Source of the DNA: Bdellovibrionales bacterium
GTDB taxonomy: Bacteria; Pseudomonadota; Alphaproteobacteria; UBA9219
DNA length: 64,000 nucleotides
Assembly: GCA_040275305.1 (NCBI GenBank)
Contig: JBEOJY010000005.1
Location: 393 to 64,392, forward strand
Reading direction: 5' to 3'
The notes beneath the pieces were generated by a model. The model was not told where the DNA came from, made no database searches, and worked only from the letters and a program-made list of their open reading frames with translations. Below, one piece after another: positions 31,336 through 40,774 of the stretch; positions within the stretch are counted from its first letter, which is position 1; each line of letters starts with the position of its first letter. Both the position numbers and the translations under genes were made by a program.

Positions 31336-32061
31336 ATGGCCGGACATTCCCATGCCAAGAACGTGATGCACCAAAAGGGCGTCAGCGACGCGAAGAAGGC
31401 GAAAATCTTCAACAAACTTGCGCGCGAAATTATGGTTGCGAGCAAGCAGGGGTTGCCTGATCCGGCGTTTAATCCCCGTCTTCGAGCGGCGGTATTGGCT
31501 GCGAGGAAGGGTAACCTTCCGCGCGAGCGCATCGACCGCGCGATCAAATCAGGCCAACCCGGAGGCGATGACGGCGCGAATTATGAGGAAGTGCGTTACG
31601 AAGGGTATGGGCCGGGAGGCATCGCTTTGATCGTCGAGGCGCTGACAGACAACCGCAATCGCACGGCTTCGGAACTTCGCACCGCGTTTTCCAAGAATGG
31701 CGGGACGATGGGCGAAAGCGGGTCGGTATCCTATATGTTCGATCGTAAGGGCGTTATCGTTTATCAGGCCAAGGTCGCCACCCCGGATGCTATGCTGGAG
31801 GCCGTTATTGAGGCTGGTGGCGATAATGTCGATTCTGATTCTGACGCTCATGAAATAACATGTCAGGTCGAGGATTTTGGAGCGGTTCGCTCCGCGCTGG
31901 AAGCCAAATTCGGCGAGCCGGAGAGCGCCAAGCTTGATTGGCTGCCCAAGACCGAAACGGCGGTTACTGGTCAGGTTGCGCAGGATTTGGCGCGGCTTGT
32001 GGAGGTTCTCGAAGACAATGACGATGCGCAGAATGTTATTACCAACGCAGCCGATGGGTGA
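31336..32061 (+). CDS. yebC: YebC/PmpR-family protein
   Basis: MAGHS, NPRLR, YEGYGPGG and TDNRNRT motifs. Confidence 0.95.
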   Translation: MAGHSHAKNVMHQKGVSDAKKAKIFNKLAREIMVASKQGLPDPAFNPRLRAAVLAARKGNLPRERIDRAIKSGQPGGDDGANYEEVRYEGYGPGGIALIVEALTDNRNRTASELRTAFSKNGGTMGESGSVSYMFDRKGVIVYQAKVATPDAMLEAVIEAGGDNVDSDSDAHEITCQVEDFGAVRSALEAKFGEPESAKLDWLPKTETAVTGQVAQDLARLVEVLEDNDDAQNVITNAADG

Positions 32062-32079
32062 TTGGGACTTGTCTCTAAT

Positions 32080-32122
32080 AAAAAAAGGGGTCTTGGCTTT
32101 ATGTGGCTAAGACCCCTTTTTT
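32080..32122. terminator. Bidirectional intrinsic terminator
   Basis: aaaaaaaggggtcttggc-loop-gctaagacccctttttt between convergent yebC and the FapF-like gene. Confidence 0.85.
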
Positions 32123-32139
32123 ATGAGGATGTCGATTGG

Positions 32140-33483
32140 TTAATTGCCAAAGGCTTGCAGGGCAACGGGCACACGGAAGGTAACCTGAGCGTCCGGCGCA
32201 TCGCGCGTGATACCTGCGGCCACGTTCATATTCACATGCACGCGATTGTTCACTTTGAACGAGAAGCCAGTTAGCGTCGATCCAACCTGAAGCGAATCGC
32301 CACGTTGGGAGACGCCGCCGATTTCTGTGGTTGTGGGCCTGACGTAGGCATGTTCATAGCCCAGCGTGAAGGACAGGCGGTCATTGAGAGATACGCCCAT
32401 GCCTGCGCTGGCCGTGTAGGCGGCACCGGGATCAACTCTGCCGATGGCGCTGCCCGCAACAGTGCGGTTGATCGTTTCGCCGAAGCTGTGGACGTAACCG
32501 ATATTGCCGAACAGCACGGCGGGGTCGAGCGGGTAAATGGCCGTCACGCTAGGCGCGACCGACATAAAGCCGGATCCTGTCGCTAGATCTTTCGAGCTCC
32601 CATTCGCGTTGTAGGCAATCCGGTAGGGGCTTGTTCCTGTGTCTGACTTATAACGTAAATTCGCGATGAAGAAGGGCCAATCCTGTTGCCCTTTGTTGAT
32701 CTGATAGTGGGCGCCGAATTCGATATCGCCTAGTCCGTAGCCATTGGTTGTTTGATGGGCTGTCGGCGATCCTGTCAGCGACACGATGGTGTCGTATTGC
32801 GAATCCTGACGCCAGACAAATGGGACTCTGGCTTCCAGTTCGAGGCGGTTCGTGACGCCGACACGCACCGTTGTTCCCGTTGTGACGATATCTCGCGCCA
32901 CGCGATTGGCGCTGATTTCACCGATCAGGAAGGAAGGCAGCAGCGAGCCGCCCAAAAATGTGAAGTTGTTGATCGAAGAACGCGCGTATTCGGCAAAAGG
33001 TTCCAGCACTATCTTGCCGTACGGGGTTAACACGCCGCCGGTGTTGGCTAAAATGGGAACTTCGGGCGGCTTGTCTTGTCCGGCAGGGGCTTGCCCTACT
33101 TGTTCTGTAGGCATAGCTGGCGAGGCCGCCGATTGCTGGGCGGTTTGTTTTTTCTTCGGCGCGGTTGCTGATTCTTGCGGTTCACCCGAAGCGTCGCGCC
33201 ATGACGATTTCTGTTTCTTGGCCAGTTGGGCTTCGAGCGCCGTGATTTTGCGGTCTTTGTTGCCGATGTCCGCTTCCAGCTTGCTGAGACGCTCTTGCTG
33301 GCTTTCCAGTTTTTGGGCTAGGTCAGCCAAAGCCTTCTGGATGGTTGCTTCTTCTGCTTTCGCATTAGAGGTCTTGGCCATTGCCGGCGATGCCGCAAGC
33401 CCTACTACGGCAGTAAAAACTACAAGGGATGACAGCGTACGGATGCCATGGAGCATTGCGCGCGCGGACGCATGGAAAGGCAT
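32140..33483 (-). CDS. FapF-like outer-membrane beta-barrel amyloid transporter
   Basis: Signal peptide, coiled coil (IQKALADLAQKLESQQERLSKLEADI...), linker, GVLTPYG, then alternating strands with GLGDIEFG, TGSGF, DPAVLFGN and APDAQVTFRVP; start codon uncertain. Confidence 0.75.
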   Translation of the reverse strand: MPFHASARAMLHGIRTLSSLVVFTAVVGLAASPAMAKTSNAKAEEATIQKALADLAQKLESQQERLSKLEADIGNKDRKITALEAQLAKKQKSSWRDASGEPQESATAPKKKQTAQQSAASPAMPTEQVGQAPAGQDKPPEVPILANTGGVLTPYGKIVLEPFAEYARSSINNFTFLGGSLLPSFLIGEISANRVARDIVTTGTTVRVGVTNRLELEARVPFVWRQDSQYDTIVSLTGSPTAHQTTNGYGLGDIEFGAHYQINKGQQDWPFFIANLRYKSDTGTSPYRIAYNANGSSKDLATGSGFMSVAPSVTAIYPLDPAVLFGNIGYVHSFGETINRTVAGSAIGRVDPGAAYTASAGMGVSLNDRLSFTLGYEHAYVRPTTTEIGGVSQRGDSLQVGSTLTGFSFKVNNRVHVNMNVAAGITRDAPDAQVTFRVPVALQAFGN

Positions 33484-33526
33484 GGGGGACTCCAAAAAAT
33501 TTGGTCTAGTGGATGGATGCTAGACA

Positions 33527-34165
33527 CTAACGTCGTAGTACATTACGTAGACTGTTCATAGCCTGTGATTTCAGTGCCGTCAGCGCTTGATATGCCTGAG
33601 ACTTTTCTGCCACGTAGTTCGTTATATCAATCGTGATGCTCTGAATCTGACTGATGACAGCCCCATTCGCTGAGTTGGAGACTAGCGTTGTGACATTGCC
33701 TGTCAATGGGTCGGCTGAACTTGTTATAGTTGTGTTGCCTGTTGGTAACGTTGTTGTTTGAGTTTCAGGTTGAGAAACTGACGCGCTGGATGCGACTGGA
33801 TAAACCTTTGTAGTTGTACCTAGTTGCTCGATTTTCGCTGCCGCTACAGTGCTAGAGGCGGATGTCGGGGCAGTGATTTTACCGCTTGAGTAATAATTAT
33901 GTACCACGCTCTTTCCGTCGAGTAGAATTTCTGTTTCGATCCCGATGTTTATATTCATTCCGTTTGGTAAAATGTATCCCCCGTAGGCTTCTTCTAGTTC
34001 GGCGGCATTCATGGGTGATAACCCATGCAGAGCGTCGATGGATTCAGCTTTAGCTATTGAGAGGGGCGCCATGATGCCAAGGCAAGCCGCAAGGAGCAAT
34101 GCGGTTGCGCGGCCCATGAGGTTGCGGAAAAAGTCGCGAGAGGGGGTGGGGGATTTAGTGTTCAT
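33527..34165 (-). CDS. Secreted accessory protein, FapE-like (double-Gly motif)
   Basis: Signal ending AKA; PMNAAELEEAYGG|YILPNGMNINIGIE; C-terminal TTLVSNSANGAVISQIQSITID. Confidence 0.6.
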   Translation of the reverse strand: MNTKSPTPSRDFFRNLMGRATALLLAACLGIMAPLSIAKAESIDALHGLSPMNAAELEEAYGGYILPNGMNINIGIETEILLDGKSVVHNYYSSGKITAPTSASSTVAAAKIEQLGTTTKVYPVASSASVSQPETQTTTLPTGNTTITSSADPLTGNVTTLVSNSANGAVISQIQSITIDITNYVAEKSQAYQALTALKSQAMNSLRNVLRR

Positions 34166-34877
34166 GGAATGTCGGGTGGTTGATGGTGAAAGAGGAGAGC
34201 GCGTTGTGGTTGTGGGTTCGGCCTCTGCTGATTGGAGAGCGCGGCAAGGCTTTTAAGTCTGCACTATCATTGAAGTGAGCGCGGCCTTTGGCCACATTGT
34301 CGCGAATGACGAAAACAACTTTGTTCCAGATGGCTTCAAACTCGTCCAAGGGGATTCGACGTAAACCAAGTTGCGAATCGGCAACGATAACCGCCCCGTT
34401 GTCGATGCCCCTTATCACTATGAAGTGGTTATATCCACCGGGGCTTATCAATGTTAGGGAGGGCAGATCCAGCGATTGTAGCTGCTGGATCGTGAGCTTG
34501 TATCCGTCTGCGCGATATCCTTCGGACGCAAGAAACTTTTTGATATCCAGCAGCGAGAAGCCGACCTTGCGGATGTGTTCCTGATTCCCAACTTTGTACA
34601 TCGCTTGGAACACGCTTTGTTCGTCCGTGGGGATATCGTAGCTGTGCGTAAGCAATGTCGCAACGGCGGCAGAGCCACAGCTGTAGTCATAGGCTTGATG
34701 TATGACGCGCTCGTCGCGCAGTTCCTTAATGCTTTTGACCTTAACCGAAAAGTCACCTGACGGCGCGACGATCTGTCCTGCCTGCGCGTTTTTTCCGCCG
34801 CTCAATGCGACAGTGAAAATAACGATTAACAGACACGCCATTCGCCAACACATCCCGGTTGCTCCGCTTAATGGCAT
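34155..34877 (-). CDS. Stand-alone periplasmic C39 peptidase, FapD-like
   Basis: QAYDYSCGSAAVATLL (catalytic Cys), GFSLLDIK, GYNHFIVIRG (His), VADS (Asp); signal-like N-terminus, no ABC domain. Confidence 0.85.
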   Translation of the reverse strand: MPLSGATGMCWRMACLLIVIFTVALSGGKNAQAGQIVAPSGDFSVKVKSIKELRDERVIHQAYDYSCGSAAVATLLTHSYDIPTDEQSVFQAMYKVGNQEHIRKVGFSLLDIKKFLASEGYRADGYKLTIQQLQSLDLPSLTLISPGGYNHFIVIRGIDNGAVIVADSQLGLRRIPLDEFEAIWNKVVFVIRDNVAKGRAHFNDSADLKALPRSPISRGRTHNHNALSSFTINHPTFHEH

Positions 34878-35233
34878 CAGTGCATGTACACGAGAATTGA
34901 CGTGGATTGCGAAATCGAAACCTGATTGCCGGAATTCGCAATTAAGGTCGTAAATCCGCTGTTATTGCTTAAGCTGTTTCCGAACACTTCGCCTGTGGAT
35001 CCAATCGAACCGATTGAATTTTGCGACACTTCGGACTTTACGTTCGCCGAGCTTTCGTTCGTGACGATTGTATGGCCGCCCGATATGTTGTTAAGCGTTT
35101 CTGCGCTGACGCCTGATAAGTGCGACAAGGCAAACTCATCCTGTGGGCTTGCCGCGTCTTCGGCAGAGGCCAATTGCGGCGCTCCGACCAAGCTAAGCAC
35201 TAATACGGCGGAAAAGATTATCTTGGGATACAT
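34877..35233 (-). CDS. Small secreted Fap-like minor subunit/nucleator candidate
   Basis: AAGGAG RBS; signal ending ASA; VSAETLNNISGG; C-terminal SNNSGFTTLIANSGNQVSISQSTSILV. Confidence 0.6.
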   Translation of the reverse strand: MYPKIIFSAVLVLSLVGAPQLASAEDAASPQDEFALSHLSGVSAETLNNISGGHTIVTNESSANVKSEVSQNSIGSIGSTGEVFGNSLSNNSGFTTLIANSGNQVSISQSTSILVYMH

Positions 35234-35282
35234 GGCAATCTCCTTAACAATCAATATTTGTCGCTACGTTCGCGAAAGAAAG

Positions 35283-35310
35283 GGGATGGAAATTTTTCAA
35301 TTTCCATCCC
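35283..35310 (-). terminator. Intra-operon stem-loop (leaky terminator or mRNA stabiliser)
   Basis: 12-bp perfect stem gggatggaaatt/aatttccatccc followed on the minus strand by ctttctttc. Confidence 0.6.
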
Positions 35311-35326
35311 GCAATCTTATTAGGTC

Positions 35327-36139
35327 TTAGCGGGTTGATGCCGCAACGGCGGTCGAAATGCCGACGTTCGAGATCGCGCCTGTGTTGACGCTGCTGCTGA
35401 TCACGCCACCAGAGGTGCTGGTCGACACGCCATTTACGCTGCCGCTGTTGACGGATGCGTCGCCAGCGTGCTTGCCGTTGCTGTCTGCGTCGATCTTGTT
35501 GCCGGTGCTGACTTGCGAAAGCGCGGCAATCGAGAGCGCGGCGGAGATGTCATACTTGTTCTCGGTCTTGGTCGAGTTGAAGCTGTCTTCGGCCGTGTAG
35601 GTGTTGGTCGTCGTGTTGGTGGTCTTGTTCTTCGTCGTGTTGGTCGTGTTGTAGCTGTCTTCGACTTCCAGTGAGGTCTTGTTGGATGTGTTGTAGCTGT
35701 CGTCGGTCTTGTTGTTGCTGTTCTTGGTGTTGGTCGAGGTCTTGTTGTAGCTGTCTTCGATGTCAACTTCTGACGAGGTCTTGTTTTCGGTCGAAGTCTT
35801 GTTGAAGCTGTCCTTAACTGAGACATCGACATCGGTCGAGGTCTTGTTTTCGGTCGAGGTCTTGTTGAAGCTGTCCTCGACATCGACATCGACATCGGTC
35901 GAAGTCTTGTTTTCGGTCTTGGTCGAGGTCAGGTTGGCTGTGTTGAAGCTGTCGTCAACCGTCTTTGTGTCCGACTTCGAGCTCGTGTTCGTCGTCGTCG
36001 TGCTGCTCGACTTTTCGGTGTTGAAGCTGTCGGTGGTGTTGTTATTGGCTTGATCGTTGCCAAATCCATTGACGCTATCAGCAAACGCGGGCGACGCGGC
36101 GAGCATCAAGCCAAACGCGGCGAGTGCAATCTTCTTCAT
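35327..36139 (-). CDS. Secreted Ser/Thr/Asn/Asp-rich DS[F/Y]N-repeat protein, putative major amyloid subunit
   Basis: AGGAG RBS; signal MKKIALAAFGLMLAASPAFA; eight DS[FY]N motifs; mature part has no Pro, Cys, Trp or Met; first gene of the operon. Confidence 0.7.
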   Translation of the reverse strand: MKKIALAAFGLMLAASPAFADSVNGFGNDQANNNTTDSFNTEKSSSTTTTNTSSKSDTKTVDDSFNTANLTSTKTENKTSTDVDVDVEDSFNKTSTENKTSTDVDVSVKDSFNKTSTENKTSSEVDIEDSYNKTSTNTKNSNNKTDDSYNTSNKTSLEVEDSYNTTNTTKNKTTNTTTNTYTAEDSFNSTKTENKYDISAALSIAALSQVSTGNKIDADSNGKHAGDASVNSGSVNGVSTSTSGGVISSSVNTGAISNVGISTAVAASTR

Positions 36140-36211
36140 GATATTCTCCTAAGAGTTGGTTGTTTGGGTTTGATATCAATCCCCTATGGTCCTCACAGGG
36201 AACCAGACCTT

Positions 36212-36239
36212 GGTTTAGCGTATGAGGGAATTGCGTCAA
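36212..36239 (-). promoter_or_regulatory. Candidate RpoD promoter for the Fap-like operon
   Basis: Minus strand TTGACG-N14-GCTAAACC resembles the alphaproteobacterial sigma70 consensus. Confidence 0.45.
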
Positions 36240-36249
36240 GGGGAAAAAT

Positions 36250-36263
36250 TTGATTCGAATCAA
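36250..36263. promoter_or_regulatory. FNR/FixK-type box
   Basis: Exact TTGAT-tcga-ATCAA palindrome. Confidence 0.55.
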
Positions 36264-36483
36264 AAATATAATTATGATTATCGTGTTTTTGTCGTGAAGC
36301 TGCTTTGCGTTATTTCTTGTCGCTGCGATGCACGCATGCGGTGGCAGGTGGCTATGTAAGCAAGATACTCTTGCTTTATTTAGCGTTCTTTGCGTTTCGA
36401 TTGCGCTTTGCGCAGGGGGAGCTATTCTGGTCTTTGATAGAGGATTGCTGTCGCTCAAAGATTTTGAGAAGCTTCACCAATTA

Positions 36484-36731
36484 TATACTCCGTAGGATTG
36501 GAAAGCCGAAAAAGCAACAAGGGTCGTCAATCGCGACGAGCTCCCTTTGGGAGAAGACGCGATCCAGTGTCGCGCAGTATATTGCTTGGGACTCTGGATT
36601 GCCGCGTCGCTTTCCGCCTTCGGCGGAAAACTCCTCGCAATGACGCCCTGTTTGCAAGGATTGTTTTTCATGAGCCACAACAAGCGCTTTAAGAGCCAGT
36701 CATTTTCTGGGTTCCAATCCTACGGAGTCTA
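36484..36731. mobile_element. TA-ended MITE (IS630-like ends) with REP-like cargo
   Basis: Perfect 17-bp inverted repeat actccgtaggattggaa (36487-36503) / ttccaatcctacggagt (36712-36728); internal ...ctcctcgcaatgacg palindrome. Confidence 0.7.
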
Positions 36732-36907
36732 GTTAAAGTGGATAATTTCCGTAATATTCCGCAATCGTCGTCATCGCGAGCGAACGCGAAGCGATCCAGA
36801 GTCGGTGGCGATGTCGTGTGGGATTCTGGATCGCGTCGTCGCCCGAAGGGGGCTTCTCGCAATCATGGCGTTTATTGCGCGTTTAAGTAAATTAGCTGGT
36901 TTGACTA
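36730..36907. mobile_element. Second, abutting TA-ended MITE with REP-like cargo
   Basis: tagttaaagtggataattt vs reverse-complemented right end tagtcaaaccagctaattt (14/19); internal gtcatcgcgag...gcgatccag / ctggatcgc...ctcgcaat. Confidence 0.5.
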
Positions 36908-36928
36908 TAGCTCGCGATTTTTGCAGGT

Positions 36929-37900
36929 TTACAAATATTTGACGATGCTGAGTTGTCCCAGTTTTGCCGTTGCCGAGTAGGATGCTTCAAGTTGCGTTTG
37001 CAGCAGGGTAATTTTGATGCTTACTTCCGTGAGGTCGACTTTCTGGATGTCATCCACCTGATCTTTTAGCGTGTTAATGCTGTCGGATAGATTTGTTACC
37101 TGACTATTTATGGTGTTTTGGTTTCCTGCAACAGCGGTATGAATGCCCTGAATGCCTTGTAGCGCTGTCGCGAGCATTGTTGCGGCCTGATTCATATCGG
37201 ATTGATATGTCGCTGGGTCGGTGGTTTGGGTTGCGCGATACATATAGCGCAGGCCATTTATGAGCCTTTGGAAGCTCGGATCGTCGCTGCTAACCCCATA
37301 AGTGATGCTGTAGTTGTCGTCCGCAAGAACCGAGTCGGCTGTATAGGCGTTGGCGTCGGTTACTGTGCCACTTAAGACATACGCATTATCGTAATCCGGA
37401 AGCGTTAGGTTATCGTTGTGGATCGTTGCCGCTGGGGCGCCCGATAAGACGGTCAGGTCGTCGGAAACAGGTTGCGTCGTGTAGCGGATGCCTGCGTATA
37501 CATAGCGGTTGCCGACTTTTTGGTTAAGATCGTTGGATACTTGTTTCAGGTAGTTCTCGACTTGGGCTTTGATTTGCGGAATTTTCGTCGCGTCGTAGCT
37601 CTGGTTCTGAGATGCCAGAGATTTGGCGTCTGCCGTAATGCTCTCTATGTCGGATAAAGTCGTGTCATACATCTCAAGCCGCGTTTTTACGGATTTGAGC
37701 CCAGAAGTGTAAGCATCTTTTGCGTTCACGCTGTTTTGGAAATTCATCAACTGCCGAGCTTCAAGCGGGGCATAGTCCGTGAGATCGGCGTTCTTCTTTC
37801 CGCTTGAAAGCTGTTCGTTGAGCTTGCTTAGATCCTTTTGCTCCTTTTGCAGGGAGTTAGTCATTAGAATCTGCATGCCTAGCGAGCTGACGTATGTCAT
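36929..37900 (-). CDS. flgL: Flagellar hook-associated protein FlgL
   Basis: EQLSSGKK, NRYVYAG, C-terminal QLEASYSATAKLGQLSIVKYL; downstream of flgK. Confidence 0.85.
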   Translation of the reverse strand: MTYVSSLGMQILMTNSLQKEQKDLSKLNEQLSSGKKNADLTDYAPLEARQLMNFQNSVNAKDAYTSGLKSVKTRLEMYDTTLSDIESITADAKSLASQNQSYDATKIPQIKAQVENYLKQVSNDLNQKVGNRYVYAGIRYTTQPVSDDLTVLSGAPAATIHNDNLTLPDYDNAYVLSGTVTDANAYTADSVLADDNYSITYGVSSDDPSFQRLINGLRYMYRATQTTDPATYQSDMNQAATMLATALQGIQGIHTAVAGNQNTINSQVTNLSDSINTLKDQVDDIQKVDLTEVSIKITLLQTQLEASYSATAKLGQLSIVKYL

Positions 37901-37919
37901 GTGATAACCTTTTGCGTTT

Positions 37920-39335
37920 TTATGACACGAGTTGCATCAAACTTGTCAACATTTGGTTGACCGTGCTGATAATATGCGCGGCAGCTGCATAACTGTTTTG
38001 ATAAGTTATTAGATTGGACAGCTCGGTATCTATATTTACTCCCGTGCGATTGGCCAATGTCTCGGTATAATACGATTTCTGGGTCGTTACCGTGTCGTTT
38101 TGATCTATGATGCTGTTGGCCGTTTGCTGAAAATTGGACAGGATGGCCGTGGTTAGCTCCTCGTAGGTCACATTCGTGGCAGACAAACCGGAGGCGCTAT
38201 AGTTCGCCGTGTTTGTGAGACTGTCGGCAATGTCTTGCGTGTTGGTTTCTGGCAGACCAGAGGTGCCTGCGAGGATGTTGGCGTTTACCTGAAACGTCGC
38301 TGGATCTAGGGGCAAGCCGCTGGCCGTGAAGAAATGCGCGTCCAATGTTTGGCCATTTTGCGTTCCCGCGAGCGAGTCCGTTACTGCCGCGCCATAGGCG
38401 GTGTCGAATAGCCCGCTCGTTAGTCCCGTGACGAGCGTTGACAATTGCGCGTTGAGCTTTGCAATAACGCCGACGCCAGCAACATTGCTCGACGCAGCGG
38501 AGGCGCTTGTGTCGATAAAATTGAACTGAGCTTCCAGCGAGCCGCCGATTAAGGCGGTTCGCACATCGTTGCCACTGGAGTCCAAGACCGTGGTTCCGTT
38601 GAAACTGAAGGTTTCTGCGCCGATTCCTCCGTCAACCAATAACTTGCCGCTCGGCGTATACAACGCGATTTGCCCGTTGCTTCTTTGCTGGATCGTAATG
38701 TCCATATATTGGGCGACTTTGTATACTAGCTGGTCCCGGTTGTCTTGTAGATTGACCGTTTGTTGGCCAGACGTTGTCGAGGACTGGATCTTTCTGTTGA
38801 TATCTTGAATTTGTTTCAAGGTTTCGTTCAGATCCGTGACGGAGGTGGCGATGTCATTGTTGACCTGACTTGTCAGCTGGTTAACCTTGGTCGCGATACT
38901 GTTGATTGTCTTTGCGAGATTGTTGCCGGTTGTGACGAGATTCTGTTTCTGGATGTTACTTTCCGGTTCTGCGGCATACTGTTTCCATGCTGCAGAGAAC
39001 TGGGACATTTGATCGGATAGGTCCGGGTTGTCCGATGTGGAGTCGAGAATCGACTGCACTTGTTGCATGTAAGATTTCTGGGCGCTGAAGTATCCTTCTT
39101 CCGTTGTCGCCTCGACGAGGTTGAGCGTCAGGGCCTGATCGGTCGAGCGCGTGTAGCCTGAGATGGTTGAACCGCCGAATTCAGTGCCATATTCAACCGT
39201 GGTGACGGTTGCCGATTTTGCCGTGTAGCCGGCAGTATTCGCGTTCGAGATGTTGTTCGCGGTTAGCGCTATGAGGTTTGTCGATGTCCTCATGCCGGTT
39301 AGGGCAAGCGAGAAGGCTTGGGTTAGCGAAGACAT
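37920..39335 (-). CDS. flgK: Flagellar hook-associated protein FlgK
   Basis: ANNISNANTAGY, NLQDNRDQL, GVNIDTELSNLITYQNSYAAAA. Confidence 0.9.
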   Translation of the reverse strand: MSSLTQAFSLALTGMRTSTNLIALTANNISNANTAGYTAKSATVTTVEYGTEFGGSTISGYTRSTDQALTLNLVEATTEEGYFSAQKSYMQQVQSILDSTSDNPDLSDQMSQFSAAWKQYAAEPESNIQKQNLVTTGNNLAKTINSIATKVNQLTSQVNNDIATSVTDLNETLKQIQDINRKIQSSTTSGQQTVNLQDNRDQLVYKVAQYMDITIQQRSNGQIALYTPSGKLLVDGGIGAETFSFNGTTVLDSSGNDVRTALIGGSLEAQFNFIDTSASAASSNVAGVGVIAKLNAQLSTLVTGLTSGLFDTAYGAAVTDSLAGTQNGQTLDAHFFTASGLPLDPATFQVNANILAGTSGLPETNTQDIADSLTNTANYSASGLSATNVTYEELTTAILSNFQQTANSIIDQNDTVTTQKSYYTETLANRTGVNIDTELSNLITYQNSYAAAAHIISTVNQMLTSLMQLVS

Positions 39336-39386
39336 CTTTTATATCCTTAAAGCGGATTGCCTTGTAAGCGCCCGTCGAACTTCATG

Positions 39387-40688
39387 TCACTGAACCATGT
39401 TGATGGTCACTTGCAGCAAACTGTTGTCAGCGGTCACGACCTTCGCATTGGCTGAGTATATCTGTTGCGCTTGAATCAAGGTTGTGAACTCGGTCGCGAT
39501 ATCGACGTTGGATTGCTCAAGGGAGTTGGCCGAGATCGTGCCTGCGCCTGTTGTGCCTGGCACGCTGTAACGCGGCGTTCCGGCGGCCAGTGTCGATGAG
39601 TAGGCTCCTCCGCTTATGCGCTGAAGCTGGTTTTCCGCGTAGAACTGAACGATTGGGATTTGATAGATAGTTCTGGTCGTGCCGTTGCTGTAGTTGATCG
39701 ACATGAGGCCGTCGCTGTCTATGCCGAGGCTATCGAACGAACCACGCGGCAAGCCATCCTGACTGAAGTTCGTAACGCTTACAGCTACACTGCTGTCCGC
39801 ATATTGCGAGACGCCGCCGGAGCTGCCAAGAGTGCCAAAGTCAAGTGTCGTCGTTTGCGCGGCCGTGCCCGGGAAGGTTATCGACGCATTCCATTCGGCA
39901 GGGTCTCCGGCTGTGTTGATCGTCGTGGTTCCGTCCGTAATGCTGGCAATCGTACCTGCCGTTGTGCCGCCGCTGCCAGTGTTGAAGACGAAGGTTAGGG
40001 TTTCCGCGTAGGCGGGCGTAGCGTCTGGTATGCTGATATCCAGATCCCATATGTTTGTCGCTGTTTTACTCCACTCGTAGCTGAGATCGTGCGTGTTGCC
40101 GAGCGCGTCGTAGATTTTAACGGTTGAAGTTGAGGAGGTATAGGCATTCGCCGCGTTTGAAGGAAGATTGGCGCTGTATGTAACTGTGCCGGTGGAGACG
40201 GGATCGTCTAGAAGCGCAGACACCTGGATTGCCTCTGTTGACGATGTGTCTACGTTGCCTGAGCTGTCGACTGTGTAGCCGGTAAGGTAGAAACCAGAGC
40301 TGTTGACCATGTAGCCGCTTTTATCGAGCGAAAAGTCGCCTTGGCGCGTGTAGAGCGGCTGGCTGTTAAAGTTTGTGGTGCCCGTCGCATCGGTGGAAGC
40401 CGATTGCACGGCAAAATACCCTGAGCCCGATATGGCAAGGAAGGTTTCCGTATTCGAGCTGACGATACTTCCTTGCACATCGTTTTGATATTGCGGTCTG
40501 GCGCGCACGCCGCCGGGGTTGTTGACGGCGGCGTTAGAGGAGGTCACCAACTGCTCAAAGGACGTGCTGACGGCTTTGTAGCCTGTCGTTTGGGCGTTCG
40601 CGAGGTTGTCGGAGATGTTGCCGATCGAGCTTGACTGCGCGTTCAATCCGGCCACAGCGGTGGTAAGAGCGGAAAATAGCGAACCCAT
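39387..40688 (-). CDS. flgE: Flagellar hook protein FlgE
   Basis: ISDNLANAQTTGYK, YTRQGDF, YDALGNTH, LEQSNVDIATEF; start ATG 40688 behind AAGGAG. Confidence 0.92.
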   Translation of the reverse strand: MGSLFSALTTAVAGLNAQSSSIGNISDNLANAQTTGYKAVSTSFEQLVTSSNAAVNNPGGVRARPQYQNDVQGSIVSSNTETFLAISGSGYFAVQSASTDATGTTNFNSQPLYTRQGDFSLDKSGYMVNSSGFYLTGYTVDSSGNVDTSSTEAIQVSALLDDPVSTGTVTYSANLPSNAANAYTSSTSTVKIYDALGNTHDLSYEWSKTATNIWDLDISIPDATPAYAETLTFVFNTGSGGTTAGTIASITDGTTTINTAGDPAEWNASITFPGTAAQTTTLDFGTLGSSGGVSQYADSSVAVSVTNFSQDGLPRGSFDSLGIDSDGLMSINYSNGTTRTIYQIPIVQFYAENQLQRISGGAYSSTLAAGTPRYSVPGTTGAGTISANSLEQSNVDIATEFTTLIQAQQIYSANAKVVTADNSLLQVTINMVQ

Positions 40689-40774
40689 AACGTGTGCTCC
40701 TTTGCGTTGATTGGAAGGCTGTTCGTGTAGAGGGACTGTTCCGGAGGGCGCAGTCGTGATTTCGGACACACCTT

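Follow-up and report, generated by a model that had tools for sequence, protein, structure and literature searches.

What does the DS[FY]N-repeat protein, a 270-residue product with a Sec-type signal peptide and eight copies of a short motif, do for the bacterium that encodes it? Its gene (35327..36139, minus strand, from the open reading frame (ORF) call) lies in a 64,000-nucleotide stretch of DNA, hereafter the window, from a Bdellovibrionales bacterium (GTDB lineage Alphaproteobacteria, UBA9219; assembly GCA_040275305.1, contig JBEOJY010000005.1, positions 393 to 64,392 of the forward strand). An earlier, sequence-only reading had proposed the repeats as a new amyloid or beta-solenoid unit, that is, a cross-beta building block of tunable length handled by a C39 peptidase and a barrel protein. 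With a probability of roughly 0.6, we instead read the protein as the leading, probably the most abundant, cargo of a diverged Fap-type operon that would export a surface fibre or matrix, with the DS[FY]N tract serving as a spacer. Because the gene heads an operon with FapD-, FapE- and FapF-like genes, the protein is very probably exported as fibre or matrix cargo.

The operon comprises five genes on one strand, in the order repeat protein (hereafter position 1), 125-residue single-module protein, C39 peptidase, FapE-like protein and FapF-like barrel. The FapD-like peptidase (34155..34877, minus strand, 240 residues) matches Pfam PF03412 at E 4.2e-18 and the NCBIfam FapD model at E 1.8e-39 (135 bits, under the 330-bit cut-off). 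When it is aligned with the double-glycine protease 6MPZ, the CG(S/A)A, NHF(I/V)V and (A/N)D stretches, with their Cys, His and Asp, fall in register. A hydrophobic segment can be read at its N-terminus, and a periplasmic C39 peptidase with catalytic Cys and His is predicted to be present. The barrel (32140..33495, minus strand, 451 residues, with an N-terminal coiled coil), a putative outer-membrane protein, matches NCBIfam FapF at E 3.2e-40, its residues 29-443 aligning with model positions 5-417 of 420, and the solved FapF structure 5O67 (PDB) at E 1.6e-26 over residues 146-443. Its 138 bits fall under the 700-bit equivalog cut-off, and we therefore treat it as a FapF homologue, not an equivalog.

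The two remaining products are likely secreted and were recognized by family hidden Markov models (HMMs) in leave-one-out searches. The 125-residue small protein (34877..35254, minus strand) begins with a signal peptide, ends in a single module (SGFTTLIANSGNQVSISQ...) and bears a double-glycine-type motif (ETLNNISGG|H); it ranks first of the 10778 ORFs of the genome at E 4e-12. The 212-residue FapE-like protein (33527..34165, minus strand), with a leader-like motif (MNAAELEEAYGG|Y) after its signal peptide, likewise ranks first, at E 3.4e-27. Canonical NCBIfam models were less informative for the cargo: the FapE model matched no operon protein at E<=1 and nothing in the genome, the FapC model matched nothing in the whole genome at E<=10, and no FapA match was found among the five operon proteins.

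What the sequence-only reading had described in the repeat protein itself holds up. The N-terminus, MKKIALAAFGLMLAASPAFA|DS, is of Sec type; the signal peptide (residues 1-20, 36080..36139, minus strand; likely cleavage AFA|DS) was inferred from the sequence by inspection, no predictor being used, and is also present in the homologues P0001 and P0010. Mapping of the motif defines a variable tract at residues 37-196 (35552..36031, minus strand), rich in T, S, N, K and D and with DVDV-type alternation, in which eight DS[FY]N motifs start at residues 37, 63, 89, 110, 129, 147, 161 and 185 (spacings of 26, 26, 21, 19, 18, 14 and 24 residues). Eight far exceeds what 20000 shuffles of the mature sequence gave (mean 0.025, maximum 2). 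The mature 250 residues hold no C, M, P or W at all, as had been claimed, and consist to 51% of T, S and N (T 19%, S 18%, N 14%, followed by D 9% and K 8%). The near-identical DNA repeats placed at about 35760-35930 are real as well, since Tandem Repeats Finder reports a tandem duplication of a 63-base-pair (bp) unit within the tract (35774..35918, strand unassigned; 2.3 copies, 91% matches). The end of the protein, residues 197-270 (35330..35551, minus strand; A.LSQVSTGN...GGVISSSVNTGAISNVG...), forms a C-terminal module that is 79% identical to that of P0001.

The gene is single-copy in the 2.1-megabase genome. No Pfam family matched the protein at E<=1, nor did FapB, FapC or any other meaningful NCBIfam model at that threshold, and profiles built from 15 FapB and 16 FapC sequences failed to rank it. 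The statement that it matches neither FapC nor CsgA thus holds at the level of family models, and by these searches it is not a canonical FapC, FapB or CsgA. Metagenome contigs from two wastewater runs cover parts of the stretch with no indels and are uninformative on repeat-number polymorphism. In the run that probably supplied this DNA, a low-depth contig (3.3 vs about 31) covers the peptidase region 34380-34892 with 43 differences, so a related strain is present in the same sample.

Homologues of the repeat protein are few. An exhaustive search of 1.84 billion representatives returned only 7 proteins at E<=1e-3, a word-indexed search also gave 7, and the protein as query had no match in the genomes of 60 relatives at E<=0.001. 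Its only close relative, P0001 (234 residues, 61-73% identical), keeps residues 1-35 and the C-terminus (79% identity over the last 82 residues); the repeat tract is its least conserved part, with deletions and 6 motifs against 8 in the window. P0010 (186 residues) has no DS[FY]N motif and consists of two tandem C-terminal modules behind its signal peptide. In the position-1 protein of the sister locus L106 the module is still recognized (HMM E 1.3e-7), preceded by an unrelated N/S/Q-rich tract and again with no DS[FY]N. Repeats recur as eight DS[FL]N units in P0009, whose C-terminus lies near the family consensus (...FSGISNVNLNAGSFNNAAAQVTIGIR), and as DDSYN repeats in L109, a locus from the same bacterial family with a peptidase of another lineage.

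We approached the module independently with an HMM trained on the position-1 proteins of six relatives, restricted to their last 70 residues. The loci of these proteins had been found through the peptidase and not through the 270-residue protein. The HMM ranks the repeat-protein ORF first of the 10778 in the genome (E 0.017; next ORF 1.5), and with P0009 and P0010 added it matches residues 202-266 at E 8.4e-6. In essentially all loci of the variant family described below, position-1 and small proteins end with the module, and in the FapE-like proteins at least 30 further residues follow it. From these comparisons we conclude that the C-terminal 70 or so residues, rich in G, N, S and V, are the conserved functional part of the protein and that the DS[FY]N tract is its variable part.

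The operon belongs to a family. At a peptidase search threshold of E<=1e-10, a FapD-like peptidase was found in 27 of the 401 sampled genomes of the class (a tally that includes the unpublished genome G291, whose sequence was not used) and in 9 of 61 relatives, the window's genome counted, 6 of these being among 36 genomes of the same family. We compared 30 loci: 20 regions from the class sample, 8 from relatives, one from a Vibrio metagenome-assembled genome (MAG) reached through P0005 (L086), and the window. Twenty-eight of them share one architecture, namely one or two position-1 proteins, a small protein of 114-222 residues, the C39 peptidase, a FapE-like protein and usually a FapF-like gene. 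The latter falls inside the fetched stretch in 24 of the 28, convergent on the opposite strand in 15 (including L106) and co-directional in 9 (the window and 8 others). The exceptions are L048, a diverged canonical Fap operon (NCBIfam FapB 1.3e-21, FapC 6.8e-34, FapE 1.3e-16), and L050, with a peptidase only. An HMM of the small protein built from 18 loci matched all 10 loci outside its training set. Position-1 proteins of these variant loci are secreted, highly variable (189-958 residues) and rich in S, T, N, G, A and Q. The 270-residue protein has the features of this group, being encoded by the first gene, with a Sec signal, a long low-complexity tract, a C-terminal module and, ahead of the small-protein gene, a stem-loop.

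A maximum-likelihood tree of 44 peptidases separates this family from canonical Fap. With groups set by cargo type (L050 being "variant" by default) and an arbitrary root, the 15 canonical FapD proteins form one branch (99/96) and 27 variant peptidases a separate one (98/93); between the two, on long branches, stand L049 and the lone L050. The window's peptidase pairs with that of L106 (100/99), apart from other members of its own bacterial family; the two loci share 49% identity in the peptidase, 52% in the barrel and 50% in the small protein. Two distinct lineages of the variant operon are thus seen within one bacterial family (window, L106-L113), and the Vibrio peptidase (L086) nests among alphaproteobacterial ones. 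Since two lineages occur in one family and the Vibrio copy is nested, the tree suggests horizontal transfer of the variant cassette.

How, then, is the cargo of these operons related to that of canonical Fap? For this comparison we searched the 401 genomes of the phylum sample with the NCBIfam FapB model, which yielded a further 14 Fap operons (14 genomes, 5 above the cut-off). Profile-profile alignment with hhalign linked the variant FapE-like family to FapE (16 canonical or near-canonical sequences; 95%, E 2.8e-8) and the small family to the FapE-like family (95.7%, E 8.8e-9), with a shared 28-residue C-terminal core. The C-termini of position-1 proteins aligned with the small family (79%, E 1.6e-5), and FapB aligned with FapE (88%, E 3.3e-6). 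These comparisons therefore indicate that the cargo modules are related to one another and to FapE; to the Fap repeats they are probably related as well, only distantly.

Linkage of the repeat protein's homologues to secretion genes had been raised as a test of the sequence-only reading, and the outcome depends on the kind of homologue. DS[FY]N proteins with a signal peptide stand beside a small protein and a C39 peptidase in all six loci with readable context: the window, L041, L109, the Vibrio MAG locus L086 (whose DS[FY]N ORF is interrupted in that assembly), and L114 and L115, metagenome contigs encoding P0006 and a P0007-like protein. Wherever the contig extends far enough, these DS[FY]N loci also include a FapF-like gene. 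For proteins of this Gram-negative type, the expected linkage to C39 and barrel genes is borne out, and tunable length likewise, with 8 motifs in the window, 6 in P0001, 11 in L041 and 5 in L109. The motif as such is found outside the system too. Actinobacterial proteins annotated as "IniB N-terminal domain-containing" (P0002, P0003, P0004, P0008) carry (V/I)(E/D)DSFN repeats with acidic alternating flanks, but they come from Gram-positive hosts and are without the signal-peptide-plus-C-terminal-module architecture, and none of the 11 actinobacterial loci (L087-L097) had a C39, FapF, small-family or FapE-like match. On these contigs, from Microbacterium, Arthrobacter, Gulosibacter and other actinobacteria, the IniB-N proteins have 5-10 repeats that look like those of the window.

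The variant operons also bear on which protein the peptidase may cut. A leader pattern, [LMIV]...xG[GR] after the signal peptide, was found in all 19 variant FapE-like proteins, 18 of them with the (S/D)xxELxxxRGG|F type and the window's with MNAAELEEAYGG|Y, and in 12 of 16 canonical FapE proteins, where it reads ...ELxxxRGR|Y. It was also found in 12 of 19 small proteins, among them the window's, and in 4 of 21 position-1 proteins. The 270-residue protein is not among these four; since it has no such leader, it is probably not a protease substrate. Near-canonical double-glycine leaders directly after the Sec signal are seen in FapE-like proteins across the window, L032-L047, L086 and L106-L113. 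In work on canonical Fap, FapE was reported as the sole Fap protein fully processed at its N-terminus (Rouse et al., PMC5557850); the same source describes Cys38 of FapD as needed for secretion, which the C38A exchange abolishes, and the Fap proteins as lacking canonical C39 sites. In the variant branch the processing site looks canonical, and the distribution of leaders points to FapE-type proteins as the substrate of FapD-type peptidases.

Expression signals around the repeat gene were assessed as well. Between it and the next gene lies a terminator- or attenuator-like stem-loop followed by CUUUCUUUCG (35283..35310, minus strand), with a perfect 12-bp stem and a U-rich tail, 17 nucleotides past the stop codon. 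Its fold energy is -24.6 kcal/mol (z -5.5), and none of 200 shuffles was equally stable. Hairpins stand at the equivalent place in related loci, with z <= -2 in 8 of 10 tested; the exceptions are L106, where a stem is visible at z -1.6, and L086, with no hairpin. Stem-loops between the position-1 and small-protein genes, seen in most variant operons (window, L106-L109, L112, L113, L041, L045, L049), differ in sequence and are constant in place. In pilus operons, a hairpin after the first structural gene is usual where that gene is expressed above the accessory genes. The stem-loop fits a major-subunit role of the 270-residue protein by analogy, and the repeat gene is probably the most strongly expressed cargo gene of the operon. 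Upstream of it we found a weak sigma-70-like promoter match (36271..36298, minus strand, 9 of 12 positions); this evidence is weak because such sites are no more numerous in the region than in shuffles. Rfam gave sub-threshold matches only across 31900-37100. Further upstream, flagellar hook and hook-associated genes (flgE-, flgK- and flgL-like, judged from translated ORFs) lie at 36929-40769 on the minus strand, separated from the operon by a spacer of about 790 bp with lower GC content (46-51%) and no convincing ORF.

A feature of the mature N-termini may be mentioned here. Some position-1 proteins begin with an "NG(x)G(x)ND"-like motif, for example DSVNGFGNDQ in the window (36019-36078, residues 21-40 of the protein) and DTLNGNGFGNDTQ in L043; further examples are L045, L112, L113, P0005 and P0010. 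The loose pattern "NG.G.ND" occurs in 13 of 33 position-1 proteins and may be a targeting element or a product of chance in N/G/D-rich sequence.

Taken as cargo of a Fap-type operon, the protein might behave as follows. It would cross the inner membrane by Sec, stay unfolded in the periplasm and exit through the FapF-like pore, presumably trimeric, while the FapD-like peptidase would process the FapE-like and small proteins at their double-glycine-type leaders and leave the repeat protein uncut. Outside the cell, the repeat protein's module of about 70 residues could dock on, or stack with, those of the small and FapE-like proteins. In this picture the DS[FY]N tract would be an exposed, acidic, Thr/Ser/Asn-rich spacer or brush that sets surface chemistry and that lengthens or shortens by tandem duplication, in a role like that of the variable linkers of FapC. 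The Fap linkers are described as probably exposed and as tuning fibre properties (PMC3792158).

Several results weigh against this reading and keep our confidence in it limited. Direct comparison of the window's module with those of other cargo proteins is weak: an HMM of 23 position-1 modules from other families, built with the window protein and P0001 excluded, misses the 270-residue protein, and hhalign of the 23-protein position-1 profile against it reaches only E 0.19. With a five-sequence profile of the module subfamily, the small family is reached at only E 0.0023 and other position-1 modules at 0.008, and BLAST of the last 82 residues finds P0001 only, plus a weak match to L041 (E 0.22). 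The link to canonical subunits is weak too, with 36% and E 3.7e-4 for the small family against FapB, and 7% and E 0.005 for position-1 C-termini against FapC. The minimal Fap repeat, given as X15-G-X4-N-X3-G-X6-N-X7 in PMC3792158, has no match in the 270-, 125- or 212-residue proteins. Across the variant families it turned up in one position-1 protein of 21 and in none of the 18 small-family proteins; as a control, it matched 2-4 times in each of 15 of 15 FapB and 16 of 16 FapC sequences. AlphaFold2 found no fold for the two-module P0010 (10-row alignment, predicted local distance difference test (pLDDT) 35), and the hairpin could stabilize the messenger RNA rather than attenuate transcription. 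Other comparisons of the small family gave little: against the 270-residue protein, hhalign aligned the signal peptide alone; against one FapB-like sequence the match was weak (E 0.022); and against PDB sequences matches were at chance level (E>7). Since the direct profile and BLAST matches are weak, homology of the window's module to those of the other cargo proteins rests on intermediates and operon position, and we consider it probable, not proven.

Among other explanations, the one that survives best has the protein leave through the FapF-type pore as an export route only and remain a soluble or loosely bound matrix component, hydrophilic, possibly cation-binding or glycosylated, that never polymerizes. 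We hold this to be unlikely. Every prediction we obtained gives disorder, position-1 proteins are extremely diverse, their length range included, and the tract is acidic and rich in Ser, Thr and Asn; its 18 N-x-S/T sites compare with 12.6 +/- 2.6 in shuffles, about 2 standard deviations, which we do not count as a finding. Against such a role stands a conserved C-terminal module common, albeit at low significance, to the two other cargo proteins, and P0010, as two modules alone, suggests a module function beyond export. Relatives of the system, moreover, are described as building fibres (PMC6173800).

A second explanation is the sequence-only proposal in its strict form, in which each DS[FY]N unit would form a rung of a new fibre, cross-beta or beta-solenoid, built from alternating V/D strands, a stacked aromatic and an Asn ladder, and with length set by unit number. 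Several points favour it: the number of motifs is far beyond chance, DVDVDV/DIDV-type alternation precedes many of them (window, L109, L041, P0009), and the motif recurs in at least four operon lineages (window, L041, L109, Vibrio L086/P0005) as well as in L114 and L115. The units are of irregular length, however (14-26 residues), and the tract is hydrophilic, with 22 of 160 residues hydrophobic and 28 acidic against 18 basic. It also appears dispensable in evolution, L106 and P0010 keeping the module with no such tract, and the same repeats occur in the different actinobacterial proteins, in none of whose 11 loci is there a C39 peptidase or barrel.

Structure prediction, suggested as a check, gave this proposal no support. 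AlphaFold2 on the 270-residue protein with P0001 (a two-sequence alignment) returned a model devoid of secondary structure, with a mean pLDDT of 36; the ESM Atlas model reached a pLDDT of 0.43 with a predicted template modelling score (pTM) of 0.24. The alignments are shallow, and these predictions of disorder therefore cannot exclude a fold; they weaken the solenoid and do not refute it. Nor is a disordered monomer decisive, because Fap and other functional-amyloid subunits are described as disordered monomers before assembly (preprint 10.64898/2026.10.01.755530). Given all this, we regard the DS[FY]N motif as an improbable cross-beta unit and, as a new amyloid rung, the least supported of the claims made for this protein. 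What stands of the sequence-only reading is, very probably, a secreted cargo of tunable length in a system with a C39 peptidase and a barrel; the C-terminal module is a better candidate for assembly than the tract.

The N-terminal 22 residues of CsgA are the export signal for CsgG. By analogy, the module might do no more than direct the protein to the FapF-like pore, as a secretion or targeting signal with no later structural role. Its terminal position in the position-1 and small proteins of essentially every variant locus and a core pattern common to all three cargo types would allow this, but we find it very hard to credit, given the residues that follow the module in FapE-like proteins and the tandem pair in P0010, which looks less like a terminal signal than like a repeat unit.

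If the protein is indeed fibre cargo with a DS[FY]N spacer, one tentative arrangement comes to mind, which we offer as possible though not likely. The fibre might have a common core to which every cargo protein adds its one conserved C-terminal beta-module of some 70 residues, with the FapE-like and small proteins, once their leaders are processed, as nucleators. On the position-1 subunit, the DS[FY]N tract would be a hypervariable brush, changing through tandem duplication and cassette-like replacement. Polymerization of the module is something we can only infer, because AlphaFold2 shows no fold for either the 270-residue protein or P0010. Were the arrangement true, surface chemistry could change fast while the assembly and export parts stay fixed.

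These operons matter beyond the single protein. Fap is, to our knowledge, one of only two well-studied Gram-negative amyloid export systems, and we know of no identified substrate for its protease FapD. The near-textbook double-glycine leaders of the FapE-like proteins make that substrate question directly testable. The variant branch is widespread, nearly all examined loci being of this type, and it has single-module proteins in place of the classic three-repeat subunits and a fast-evolving repeat protein as leading cargo. It therefore offers a natural experiment on the parts of a cargo needed for export and assembly, and possibly a scaffold whose exposed tract tolerates large changes. Fap has been described in Beta-, Gamma- and Deltaproteobacteria (PMC3792158), and fapD-fapF pairs have been recorded in five further phyla (PMC6173800). 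Our literature search returned no description of this variant system or of DSFN-repeat secreted proteins, and the papers it gave on Fap-like systems and Fap homologues concerned canonical Fap only.

We lastly compared the window operon with known systems. It recalls curli CsgA/CsgB in the idea of an extracellular fibre subunit with imperfect repeats and a dedicated outer-membrane export system, but the window has a FapF-type barrel and not CsgG, the repeat chemistry is other, and no curlin-repeat Pfam match was found at E<=1. The Acinetobacter Fil system, a "putative pilus" whose FilA has been reported as detected as a surface fibre subunit (PMC11784438), likewise pairs a C39 peptidase (FilB) with a FapF-like barrel (FilC). 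The window's proteins match FilB at E 5.4e-31 (108 bits against a 475-bit cut-off) and FilC at E 1.6e-19 (70.5 bits against 630), which is weaker than their FapD and FapF matches and far under the cut-offs, and no Fil cargo model in NCBIfam matched the 270-, 125- or 212-residue proteins at E<=1.

Deviant Fap operons have been described in Vibrio (Dueholm et al., 2013; PMC3792158), with a single-repeat FapB, fapF apart from the operon and 16 Fap repeats in FapC. Our Vibrio MAG locus L086 is similar in its single-module small protein and convergent FapF-like gene; it differs, as does the window, in that its repeat protein is of the DS[FY]N kind and ends in a single module.

The last comparison is with canonical Fap itself. 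The window lacks a FapB or FapC with 2-4 canonical repeats and has one module per cargo protein. Its NCBIfam scores are far under the equivalog cut-offs, and variant peptidases branch apart from canonical FapD. Of 24 variant loci, 15 have the FapF gene on the opposite strand, a placement that none of 15 canonical loci shows, and variant FapE-like leaders read ...RGG|F where canonical FapE reads ...RGR|Y. Set against these differences, the window operon shares with Fap a periplasmic C39 peptidase, a FapE homologue and a coiled-coil barrel of FapF type (structures 5O65 and 5O67). Its cargo is, by prediction, Sec-exported and N/S/G-rich, with hydrophilic regions that vary among homologues as reported for Fap (PMC3792158), and the spacing of 9 between G245 and G254 in the module of the repeat protein equals that of the core G-x4-N-x3-G of the canonical repeat as given in the same source.

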